DNA from: a virus
Direction: 5' to 3' (one strand)
Virus genome (UHGV): UHGV-0107646
DNA: 31,828 nt
Shown: one piece after another, positions 6,001 through 9,397 of the stretch
Layout of the letters: each line of letters starts with the position of its first letter
Numbering within the stretch: position 1 is the stretch's first letter
Program-made: the position numbers

Positions 6001-9000
6001 AATACAGAGCCGTGTTTATTGAGTCGGTATTCAGAGTCTGACCAGAAATTATTAATCTGGTGAAGTTTTTCCTCTGTCATTACGTTATGGTCGATTTCAA
6101 TTTCTATTGATGCTTTCCAGTCGTAATCAATGATGTATTTTTTGATGTTTGACATCTGTTCATATCCTCACAGATAAAAAATCGCCCTCACATTAGAGGG
6201 CAAAGAAGATTTCCAATAATCAGAACAAGTCGGCTCCTGTTTAGTTACGAGCGACATTGCTCCGTGTATTCACTCGTTGGAATGAATACACAGTGCTGTG
6301 TTTATTCTGTTGTTTATGCCAAAAATAAAGGCCGACTATGCGGCCTGAAATTACTTAACCAATGATGCTGCATATTCGATAAGGTAAAGCTTTGGGGCCA
6401 GCCAAATTTTTAACCAAGTCATATTGGTTACTACACCAATAATAAAAATCCCCCACAGAGTCAAAACTCCAACCAATGGCATGATAAGAAGGTTAATATC
6501 TCCTTTGCTATCCCAAACCATTGTCGGCCTGTATTTGGGATTTCCCCTCTCCCATGAGTATCCTTCATCACCGATTTTACCTGTCTCAACTCTTTGGCAC
6601 TGCTTCTTCATAAACCAGAAAACCAGTGGGATTGTTAGAATGGCTATTAATGTTTTAATCAGACTGTCAACCATATTCCATAGCAGCAACTGATGAACAA
6701 CATCAGGAATCTGCGCTTGGCTGAATGAAACAGCCGCGTCTATTCCATTGCTGGCTTTTTGCAGTAGTTCTACGAGAATCTTGTTTGCTTGTTCTTCCAT
6801 ATATCCCCTTGATTGTAATAAGCATGAAATTATTTACGGCCAAAAAATAAAGGCCACCATCAGGCAGCCTTGTAGTTCTGTTTACCAAGTTCTCTGGCAA
6901 TCATTGTCGTCGTTCGTATTGTCTACACCATTGATTCTTATCAATAGTCGTAGTCATACGGATAGTCCTGGTATTGTTCCATCACATCCTGAGGATGATC
7001 TTCGAACTCTTCAAATTCTTCTTCCATATCTCACCTCAAATAAGTGGTTTGCTGCCTAATTTCATTTTCTGGCGACCAACACAAGTCATCTTGCTGTCAG
7101 TTGTTTGGATTTCCGGTAGCCTGCCGCGTAAAGAGCTACGTTTGGAAGACAAGTTGAGCCTTCATATTTTCTGGTCAGCGTTGTCAGTGTTATTACTTCT
7201 GCTCTCATTGCTGGTTTGCGCTTGCATTGCAAGACCACTCGTGAAGGGGTTGGCCTGTGTAGCTTGTCGGAGCTGATCGCCTTCTGACTTTGCAGATTTG
7301 CGCGACGAGCTCTACGGCGAGAAGCTGCGGTGCCTTTAAATTCTGTTTTTCTGGACATAGATTCCTCCCGAATAAACTTTGGCGATGCAATCTCGAAGCT
7401 CCTCCTGAGACGGTTGCTTCGGCATTGCATCCCACAGCTCATGTGGTTGGGTGATCTGGCTTTTCAGCCACGTAGTCGAGAGTTCGACGTTGTTTAAAGA
7501 GCCTGCCAGTCTGTTCCATTTAGCTTCCAGCGTCCTGCTGATGTGTTTAGTATCACCGCCGGAGGTATTTTCGTCAACACCGCTAGAGATAAAATATTAC
7601 CGCAAATGGTTATGTGCATGTTTTTACTATTGATTTATTTTTTTAAAGTTTTGCAGAGCTAGTCTGGATGTGTAGGAGCTGAATTGCGCAATGTGATAAG
7701 TGTGATTTATATTTATTCAATAAATACAATTCGTTAGGTGTGTTTTTGACGGGCTGATGGTAAAAGAAAACCCGGCGCGGAGGCCGGGCTGAAGGGGCTC
7801 ATTCTAATCGATTGATTTAATATCCCATTGAGGTCGAGAAACCAGAGTGTATCTGGGCTTGCCCTTACCAACAGTTTTTTTCAGGAACGTGGCTGTTGCA
7901 ACGCTTCCTAAGTGCTTGTTTATAATATCTGGGTCATCTACAGCTTTGTCAATGCTAGCGGTTCTGATATCAGTGTTACCTAAAACTATAAATTCACATT
8001 GGCGCTTGTTAGGAAGAGTTCCCAAAAATATAACGTTCTCAATAATTTTTTCCTGCTGAATGTTATCATTGCTGAGATGTTGATATACAGCTTCAAGCTG
8101 TTTTGGCTCTCTAAAAACGATGCTAAAACCTTGGCTTTTAAGTGTAAAAACTGTTTTATTTTCATGCAGATAATGAATGAATGCTCTGATTTTATCTAAG
8201 GCCCGAGAGTCTAAGTTTTCTATAGCATCAGACAATTCTTCATCATCATTATCCAAGCTTGCCTGAAATATTTTTCTGGCCTTATTAATAGCTTTTGCTA
8301 CTGGGGTTTCTTCATCGAATTCAAGAGGAGCATCAGGTCTAAACTCTTCAAGTACGAATCCGAAAGAACCACGGGCTGACGCGGTAATCATGAGATGATT
8401 ATTTTCTATGTTTGGTATCTTGCCTGATGCAGGAAGTGGGCCATTGAAAGAGGTTGCCAAGTAAGCTATTGCATCATTAAAACAAGATATAGCTTTTGTT
8501 CCAAATACTGCTGAAATGCCATGCGTGCCAACTACTGTTGGGCCTCTAAAAGTTAACACAGCATGCGTAGGTTCATGTTCTCGAACGTCAGCTTGTGAAA
8601 TTAATCGCTCAACTTTCTCCAGACGGTCTTCTAAGCTTTTTCGGCTAATAGAATGACTTGTTGGCATATTTTTTAATAGATTACTTATTTGCTCGCGCTC
8701 ACTGAGAGCGAAAACATAATCATTACGATTCATTGTTTGACCCCCTCAGTAGTAGCCGAATTAAGTATAGTCATTGCCACAACATCAAGTTGTGGGTTTA
8801 ACGGGATTTGGATAAATCCCTTCCACGACAGATCGCGTCTATGTGCCCACATACTGTACCAATATACAGTCATTTCAACAAGCTCATGACTTGGTAGATT
8901 AAGTTCTTGGAAGTAGGAATCTACGAAAAACTCCTTCTTAACAAAATCATGATCAAATAGCTCTGGCTTTCTACCGATTACGATTGCATCATTATCGCCA

Positions 9001-9397
9001 TTACTGAATTGAAAAAAGGTCACAACATCGACATCATTCGGTGGCCTTTTTTCAATAAGTTCAATATGTTCTGTGAAGCTTCCATCTACCCACTGAAAAC
9101 CTTCAACTAGCCCTGCTTGAGTGAGTGAAACACGAAAGTTAAGAAAACCCTTAAGGATTTTAATCCTTGCAGGGCTAAGCGAAAAAGTACTAACAAAGCG
9201 TACTATATCCATTTTGTATGGGGAACGAGTATGGCTTGTAGGATCAGCCTCGTCTATTGGGGGGATTAACCCCATCTCATTCCATAGAGAGACAGTTGGT
9301 ATACTCAATGCTTAACCTTTATAACGAACTGAATATTCGGCAAAATATTGTTTTTAGGTATTGGCTGCTGTGCTTGTCGGACGTTTATTTCGTGTCA

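Follow-up and report, generated by a model that had tools for sequence, protein, structure and literature searches.

The rexAB slot of UHGV-0107646 holds a two-gene cassette

The virus genome UHGV-0107646 was analysed over its whole stretch of 31,828 nucleotides, which we call the window. It contains a lambda-type immunity region in which the slot between cI and the terminator Timm, held by rexAB in lambda, is taken by two other genes, here named gene A and gene B (Table 1). An earlier note on this DNA had proposed the pair as a candidate lysogen-expressed exclusion or defence system. Our results show A and B to be adjacent genes, always in that order, which are translationally coupled and co-evolve. 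Protein A is apparently an active nucleotidyltransferase, and the pair is probably a mobile anti-phage module.

Open reading frame (ORF) calling returned both genes on the minus strand with the ends and lengths given in the earlier note, and the 4-bp ATGA that they share can be read in the sequence at 8730-8733. A Shine-Dalgarno-like AAGG precedes the TTG start of gene A within the 86-bp spacer that separates it from cI, and no terminator-like site was found on the minus strand of this spacer. RefSeq annotates gene A both as 192 and as 181 amino acids (aa); the TTG start is supported by an N-terminal Pro/Trp motif that is conserved in the family and precedes the first in-frame ATG. Since both genes are conserved across phyla, chance ORFs can be ruled out. 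The cassette is AT-rich, as the earlier note had observed: its GC content is 0.393 compared to 0.500 for the whole window, which places it in the lowest 1% of 1505-bp windows, and the GC minimum of the entire stretch falls inside it. Sigma-70-like sites within gene B numbered 9, with 7.3 expected from shuffled sequence. An internal promoter resembling the pLit of lambda was dropped as a candidate, given that such sites are no commoner here than in shuffled sequence.

The surrounding region is lambda-like, in agreement with the earlier description of its cI, oL and oR context. The cI/cro block shares 91.5% DNA identity with lambda, with homology beginning exactly at the cI stop codon (9395), and five lambda-type operator matches were observed where 0.46 would be expected by chance. 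The genes to the left of the cassette are an N-like antiterminator, a phrog_646 gene and Kil; those on its right include cro, cII, a replication initiator and a primase/helicase. The strong intrinsic terminator described in the earlier note exists, with an 8-bp stem that includes six GC pairs and is followed by a T-run, but it lies at 7769-7790 rather than 7761-7788 and about 190 bp from pL. Nor is it specific to the cassette, as it aligns with phages CL707, mEp234 and ev099 as the conserved backbone Timm, annotated as such in CL707 and mEp234. In the same alignment a conserved spacer, oL3-oL1 and pL come after Timm; equivalents of oR, pRM and pR are annotated in CL707 and mEp234. Because Timm belongs to the backbone and conserved sequence lies beyond it, the exchanged cassette spans approximately 7794-9394 and comprises two genes only.

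Table 1. Positions of the A-B cassette and its flanks in the window, and of the corresponding slots in three related phages
Feature	Position	Strand or region	Remarks
cI repressor, 237 aa, HTH_3 + Peptidase_S24	9395-10108	minus	lambda-type immunity; presumed first gene of the pRM/pRE transcript
cI-gene A spacer, 86 bp	9309-9394	minus	right-hand cassette junction
Gene A, 192 aa, TTG start	8730-9308	minus	DUF6932, predicted Pol-beta-type nucleotidyltransferase
Gene B, 309 aa, ATG start	7804-8733	minus	partner; phrog_18731 only; C-terminal OB fold (model)
Intrinsic terminator, Timm homologue	7769-7790	minus	phage backbone; left-hand cassette junction ~7794-7803
oL operators	7551-7567, 7575-7591	region 7549-7591, minus	left bound of the immunity region
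pL-like promoter, TTGACG-17-GATACT	7577-7549	minus	left bound of the immunity region
oR operators	10119-10135, 10166-10182	divergent pRM/pR region	presumed source of lysogenic cI-A-B transcription
Slot of CL707	2643-3548 of locus L082		301-aa hypothetical protein
Slot of ev099	2026-2883 of locus L084		285-aa hypothetical protein
Slot of mEp234	1252-2382 of locus L083		hicA-hicB and a 141-aa hypothetical protein

That the cassette occupies the rexAB slot is borne out by the other lambda-immunity phages, which carry differing cargo between cI and Timm (Table 1). The slot genes of CL707, ev099 and mEp234 are further candidates for lysogen-expressed functions. As the earlier note had held, genes A and B appear unrelated to rexAB. 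Neither protein had a Rex match in a PADLOC scan (v2.0.0, 2023, a library of known defence systems), and their PHROG matches are families of unknown function. Kyte-Doolittle maxima in a 19-residue window were 1.13 for protein A and 1.16 for protein B, with a usual membrane threshold of 1.6.

Genes A and B are conserved as a unit

An alignment of protein A was used to scan a single genome from each species, and at least 583 species matched. The best 80 of these matches were taken for locus analysis together with the locus of E. coli CE10, giving 81 loci. In 78 of the 81, gene B was the next gene after gene A and shared its strand; two of the exceptions are truncated by contig ends and the third, from Cupriavidus, retains a remnant of B of about 50 residues. 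The 4-bp overlap recurs in most loci. The pairwise identity matrices of the two proteins were correlated (Mantel r 0.78), a value reached by none of 999 permutations, and immediately upstream of a distant protein B (22% identity) a DUF6932 gene is again present. The hosts among the matches listed include Gamma-, Beta- and Epsilonproteobacteria, Myxococcota, Desulfobacterota, Planctomycetota, Chlorobi, Acidobacteriota, Verrucomicrobiota and methanogenic archaea.

Two loci have decayed. In Cupriavidus sp. D384 (L078 6608-6815) gene A is intact and only an N-terminal remnant of B is left, while in a Tepidisphaerales metagenome-assembled genome (L013 6001-6560) gene A carries an in-frame stop, which could be an assembly error, and B is intact.

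Within E. coli the cassette is sporadic, being present in 8 of 5426 complete genomes and always chromosomal, and plasmid matches of protein B were confined to five weak ones. In CE10 it lies in a prophage adjoining torS and is 100% identical to the cassette of the window. Left of pL, the CE10 prophage is annotated with an Nmad5-family protein and two small hypothetical proteins (L001 7642-8759, compared with 6351-7442 of the window). Since this annotation differs from that of the window, the same cassette may sit in mosaic backbones.

Protein A is a predicted Pol-beta-type nucleotidyltransferase

Protein A belongs to Pfam DUF6932 (PF22014; 93.6 bits with a gathering cutoff of 27, E 2e-26, profile positions 3-141 of 142), as its RefSeq annotation likewise states, and matches phrog_9194. 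In PADLOC, protein A had a weak match to PDC-M63A (E 2.2e-10, residues 38-171). The term uncharacterised, used for both genes in the earlier note, therefore calls for qualification in the case of protein A.

The weak GS...DxD pattern that the earlier note had picked out in the 192-aa protein proved to be invariant across the family and to be joined by a third aspartate. In an alignment of 33 homologues, down to 37% identity, the invariant residues were G76-S77, D92-x-D94, D130, R59, Q72-W73, E83, H156 and W162-K163-G164, and the same residues were 98-100% conserved in 79 sequences. The family additionally has its own N-terminal extension of about 35 conserved residues, with W9 and R28-S-P-Y31, and a conserved C-terminal YWYSMWxHRR...WKG segment. 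In an AlphaFold2 model of protein A (pLDDT 90.6), GS follows strand 69-75 and the DxD and D130 residues lie on strands 93-100 and 129-135, respectively, which corresponds to the canonical Pol-beta nucleotidyltransferase arrangement.

Fold searches with this model gave weak matches, but the top ranks were almost all nucleotidyltransferases (NTases), including minimal NTases such as MntA, aminoglycoside adenylyltransferases, Tam41, CD-NTases and poly(A) polymerases. HHblits searches published by the DefensePredictor authors (Table S5) give protein A a Polbeta match with a probability of 84 and a weak match to a CBASS SMODS cyclase with a probability of 77.7 at a query coverage of 0.18 (PMC13092281). 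Protein A did not match Pfam NTP_transf_2 or Polbeta at E<=1, nor AbiEii/DUF1814 or AbiEi in Pfam, NCBIfam or PADLOC, and a sequence search of the PDB returned no related solved structure for protein A or B. Pentatricopeptide-repeat matches of protein A in that search were discarded as repeat artefacts with per-domain scores near zero. Taken together, the invariant motifs, the predicted topology, the best structural neighbours and the published HHblits result support the Pol-beta type hinted at in the earlier note, and protein A is apparently a small, soluble and active NTase with an intact catalytic triad, as judged from its sequence and model.

Protein B combines a predicted OB fold with a putative new N-terminal fold

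No family match was found for protein B in Pfam, NCBIfam or PADLOC, where DUF2785, Secretin_N and bacterioferritin appeared as sub-threshold noise and were rejected, and its sole PHROG match was phrog_18731. A word-indexed search found 31 relatives, and a profile search found 1479 matches among 1.84 billion cluster representatives (50% identity), nearly all of them 295-325 aa long and aligned end to end.

The model of protein B (pLDDT 84) divides into a helical hairpin, a small alpha/beta unit that contains the invariant G122-S-F-G-F126 hairpin, and a helical segment followed by a five-stranded barrel. In a fold search, the C-terminal region (approximately 225-297) resembled solved OB folds, with a b1-b2-b3-a-b4-b5 barrel, and some of these matches were anticodon-binding domains of tRNA synthetases; apart from OB folds, the search returned generic helical bundles only. 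In the model the conserved N-terminal domain shows what would be a new fold. Family scans and hydropathy revealed no SAVED, STING or TIR domain and no membrane segment. The absence of a catalytic signature, already remarked on in the earlier note, was borne out in the family and PDB searches, with the C-terminal OB fold now added. The family formed by the pair is missed by PADLOC v2 and Pfam covers protein A only, as a DUF; a profile of protein B (alignment A1) would retrieve approximately 1500 protein clusters at 50% identity.

The pair lies in restriction operons and behind unrelated repressors

In 21 of the 81 loci the pair was co-directional within a type I restriction-modification (R-M) operon. 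Gene clustering, confirmed with Pfam and PADLOC, showed that the order in these operons is always hsdM-hsdS-A-B-hsdR(-ygjP), and in some loci Abi_C and YhcG genes lie beside the pair. The validated two-gene system TgvAB sits at the same hsdS-hsdR position (PMC12409362). This regular placement suggests a functional cooperation of A-B with type I restriction. Beside a distant pair (L085 5096-9028) are a DUF4238 gene, an integrase, an HTH/M78 pair and a SMODS gene accompanied by one for a Tle1-like lipase, surroundings suggestive of a small defence island carried by a mobile element. Some chromosomal copies of the pair have no obvious defence genes around them.

One of the R-M operons that hold A-B (L043 2409-4106) encodes an HsdS with an N-terminal Pol-beta/NTP_transf_2 domain. 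When the profile of protein A was compared by hhalign with this single fused minimal nucleotidyltransferase (MNT) sequence, the probability was 0.2. One immediate neighbour of the pair (alignment A3, 72 loci) matches Pfam DUF6933 (E 1.2e-48), the number next to DUF6932.

Prophage repressors of at least four unrelated types directly precede the pair, in the same orientation, in Enterobacterales. The repressors seen there include the lambda-type cI of 237 aa in E. coli, a CI-type protein of 155 aa in Salmonella (in 379 blocks of the collection searched), a 131-aa repressor in a Rac-like element of Klebsiella, an S24 repressor of 236 aa in Proteus, HTH_3 proteins of 130-161 aa in Citrobacter, Atlantibacter and Superficieibacter, and a 152-aa protein clustering with cI in Photorhabdus. 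In Proteus mirabilis prophages (L090-L092 3614-3949) a 111-aa DUF3024 gene stands between the S24 repressor and A-B in the same orientation.

Both genes have also been flagged by a published machine-learning screen. DefensePredictor lists the two proteins, within one operon, as "Predicted novel defense gene" (Tables S5 and S10), with a log-odds of 5.74 for WP_000522969.1, which is protein A with the 181-aa start, and mean log-odds of 6.68 and 7.51 for WP_001081279.1, which is protein B, at a cutoff of 4 (PMC13092281). In the main text of the papers searched we found no mention of DUF6932, PF22014, the RefSeq accessions or the PHROG identifiers, and a literature search for the combination of an NTase, an OB fold and R-M embedding returned nothing specific. 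The main text of the domain-centric discovery paper does not mention the pair.

A putative lysogen-expressed defence module and its alternatives

We consider A-B to be, with fair probability, a self-contained, horizontally mobile two-gene module acting against phages or other mobile elements. The coupling of A and B across phyla, the R-M embedding, the unrelated repressors upstream and the DefensePredictor result all sustain the candidacy put forward in the earlier note. Our best reading is that of a lysogen-expressed module, resembling a toxin-antitoxin (TA) or abortive-infection system and built around an NTase, with a mechanism that we infer. Since A-B takes the place of rexAB in the repressor operon, lysogens would express it from pRM, and also from pRE, with transcription ending at Timm. 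Synteny with lambda, the terminator-free spacer and the retention of Timm argue for co-transcription with cI.

Several points weigh against this reading. Co-transcription of cI, A and B is deduced from synteny and from a missing terminator, and family scans, fold search and hydropathy identified no recognisable effector domain (nuclease, membrane, NADase or protease) in either protein. The two decayed loci, one having lost B and the other carrying a stop in A, mean that the polarity of toxin and antitoxin cannot be read from them. A tblastn search of 50,697 phage records with both proteins gave no match, and no experimental work on the pair was found in the literature. The A-B operon lies outside the 94 transcription units tested in the DefensePredictor study, 45% of which protected (PMC13092281), and deletion of the related PDC-M63AB from its native host E. 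coli NILS69 had no effect on 10 virulent phages.

As a specific model, which we advance tentatively and consider less likely than not, protein A would neutralise protein B by nucleotidyl transfer. The two proteins would form a complex working like the MntA/HepT (type VII) TA pair or an abortive-infection pair, in which protein A holds protein B inactive in the uninfected lysogen. It could do so by covalently nucleotidylylating B, with the invariant Ser123 of the GSFGF hairpin, Thr117 and Thr61 as candidate acceptors. The OB fold of B suggests a second possibility, namely that A loads this fold with a short untemplated oligonucleotide, which B would then hold. Infection would upset the balance, for instance through host shut-off, through a phage nuclease or single-strand-binding protein, or through phage nucleic acid competing for the OB fold, and either protein B or its complex with A would then halt the cell or the phage. 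Beyond an active NTase paired with protein B, every step of this scheme is one that we infer.

The wider form of this idea is possible but doubtful. A-B would be an immune system as yet without a name, spread over at least 583 species of bacteria and archaea, in which a minimal NTase restrains an OB effector of new fold by nucleotidylylation or oligonucleotide loading until infection frees it. If so, the N-terminal domain of B with its GSFGF hairpin would be a new kind of effector or sensor. The effector chemistry could also be new, since B resembles known folds in its OB domain only.

Other readings assign the two proteins different roles. Protein A might produce a nucleotide or oligonucleotide signal, on infection or constitutively, that B binds through its GSFGF hairpin or OB fold before acting on nucleic acid, much as in CBASS or Hailong. 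CD-NTases are among the structural neighbours of A, the SMODS cyclase match points the same way, and both the glycine-rich hairpin and the OB fold could bind nucleotides or oligonucleotides; moreover, a DUF6932-type NTase has another partner in PDC-M63, suggesting a constant enzyme with exchangeable partners. We nevertheless judge such signalling unlikely, as protein A, at 192 aa, is small and without the C-terminal helical domain that CD-NTases have, there is no PADLOC match to CBASS, B has no known effector or sensor domain, and the closest structural relatives of A are minimal NTases and ANT enzymes that modify hydroxyls of proteins or small molecules. AbiEii and MenT are NTase toxins, and by their logic A would be the toxin, blocking tRNA or other RNA by adding nucleotides, and B an antitoxin or specificity subunit that binds RNA via its OB fold. 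The many invariant charged residues of A suggest a demanding active site, and the anticodon-binding domains among the OB-fold matches of B would fit. This reversed polarity is decidedly unlikely in our view: sequence searches matched A to neither AbiEii/DUF1814 nor any other toxin NTase family, a toxin gene placed upstream is the less common order, and the Cupriavidus locus, a single case with A intact and B lost, would be hard to tolerate if A were toxic, although the other decayed locus has decayed in the opposite way.

The remaining readings dispense with a role against incoming phages. As a selfish addiction module, the pair would mainly stabilise the prophage or R-M operon. Its tight coupling, overlapping genes and carriage on mobile elements are in keeping with this, as are the presence of hicAB in the same slot of mEp234 and the lack of a defence phenotype for PDC-M63AB. 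Placement behind repressors, inside R-M operons and beside Abi_C, DUF4238 and SMODS is, however, typical of defence cargo, and both genes exceed the DefensePredictor cutoff, so that we give pure addiction a low probability; many TA modules in such places do defend, which makes addiction and defence compatible. Very unlikely, finally, is a non-immune function, whether lysogenic conversion or housekeeping (nucleic-acid repair or modification, or small-molecule resistance by adenylylation) or counter-defence for the prophage. Aminoglycoside adenylyltransferases are among the structural neighbours of A, proteins of replication and repair often contain OB folds, and some chromosomal loci lack obvious defence genes. 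Yet a resistance enzyme would need no obligatory, co-evolving partner of 300 aa, the sporadic distribution in E. coli and the R-M embedding speak against housekeeping, and counter-defence would be expected in lytic operons or virulent phages, whereas the sequenced phages gave no match.

A defensive role for A-B would add a compact, soluble two-protein system, spread across bacterial phyla and archaea, to the immunity catalogue. The slot itself would then be a clean natural experiment, in that one position in the backbone, flanked by conserved cI and Timm, carries rexAB, hicAB, A-B or other genes, and isogenic lysogens that differ in slot cargo alone should be easy to build.

Further features of the window

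Two other features of the window were recorded. Between an Ea10-like gene and N, a 149-aa ORF (6351-6800; phrog_3054) has two hydrophobic stretches, and superinfection-exclusion (SieB-related) genes are annotated in this region in related lambdoid phages. Inside the replication-initiator ORF (11010-11810), a 24-bp tandem repeat (11301-11388; 3.8 copies, 95% matches) encodes a Gly/Ala-rich run. The initiator gene measures 801 bp here and 777 bp in its CE10 orthologue, a difference of one repeat unit. By analogy with the lambda O gene, these repeats may be origin iterons.

Comparison with known systems

RexAB of lambda resembles A-B in being a two-gene unit between cI and Timm/oL, co-oriented with cI and presumably co-transcribed with it in lysogens, as is presumed for A-B. 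RexB is a multi-pass membrane protein, whereas proteins A and B are soluble by prediction, and A-B, unlike RexAB, includes an enzyme of the NTase fold. TgvAB, alike in its hsdS-hsdR position, consists of unrelated proteins, DUF262/DUF1524 GmrSD-like enzymes. WonAB, another two-gene prophage system, was considered as a match and rejected, WonA being an OLD-ABC ATPase and WonB a PD-(D/E)xK nuclease.

Among the systems with an NTase, the HEPN-MNT modules (HepT/MntA, type VII TA) share with A-B a small NTase that is encoded first and a downstream partner whose gene overlaps it, and they are frequent in defence islands and R-M operons. MNTs lack the N-terminal residues (about 35) and the C-terminal YWYSMWxHRR...WKG segment of protein A. 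Protein B had no HEPN family match in Pfam or PADLOC and no Rx4-6H motif, as no His is conserved at the distance from R177 that this motif requires, and because the partner is not HEPN, A-B is not a member of this family. PDC-M63, a PADLOC candidate from an E. coli prophage, is likewise a prophage-borne system of two genes, A and B, and its M63A resembles protein A; that match leaves out the N-terminal extension, protein B has no match to PDC-M63B at E<=1, and PDC-M63 is itself only a candidate.

AbiE (AbiEi/AbiEii) and MenAT are, like A-B, two-gene systems around a Pol-beta-fold NTase, but their gene order is the opposite, A-B having the NTase first, and they pair it with a winged helix-turn-helix antitoxin in place of the OB-fold partner found here. 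CBASS and Hailong also combine an NTase-fold enzyme with a second protein. Protein A has neither the size nor the domains of a CD-NTase and no CBASS match in PADLOC; Hailong consists of the nucleotidyltransferase HalB and the membrane channel HalA, whereas protein B has no transmembrane segment. By these comparisons A-B does not belong to RexAB, HEPN-MNT, AbiE, CBASS or PDC-M63. What was already known is that protein A is a DUF6932 protein and that both genes had been flagged by a published screen; set beside these systems, A-B is an uncharacterised NTase-based two-gene module found in defence-typical contexts.

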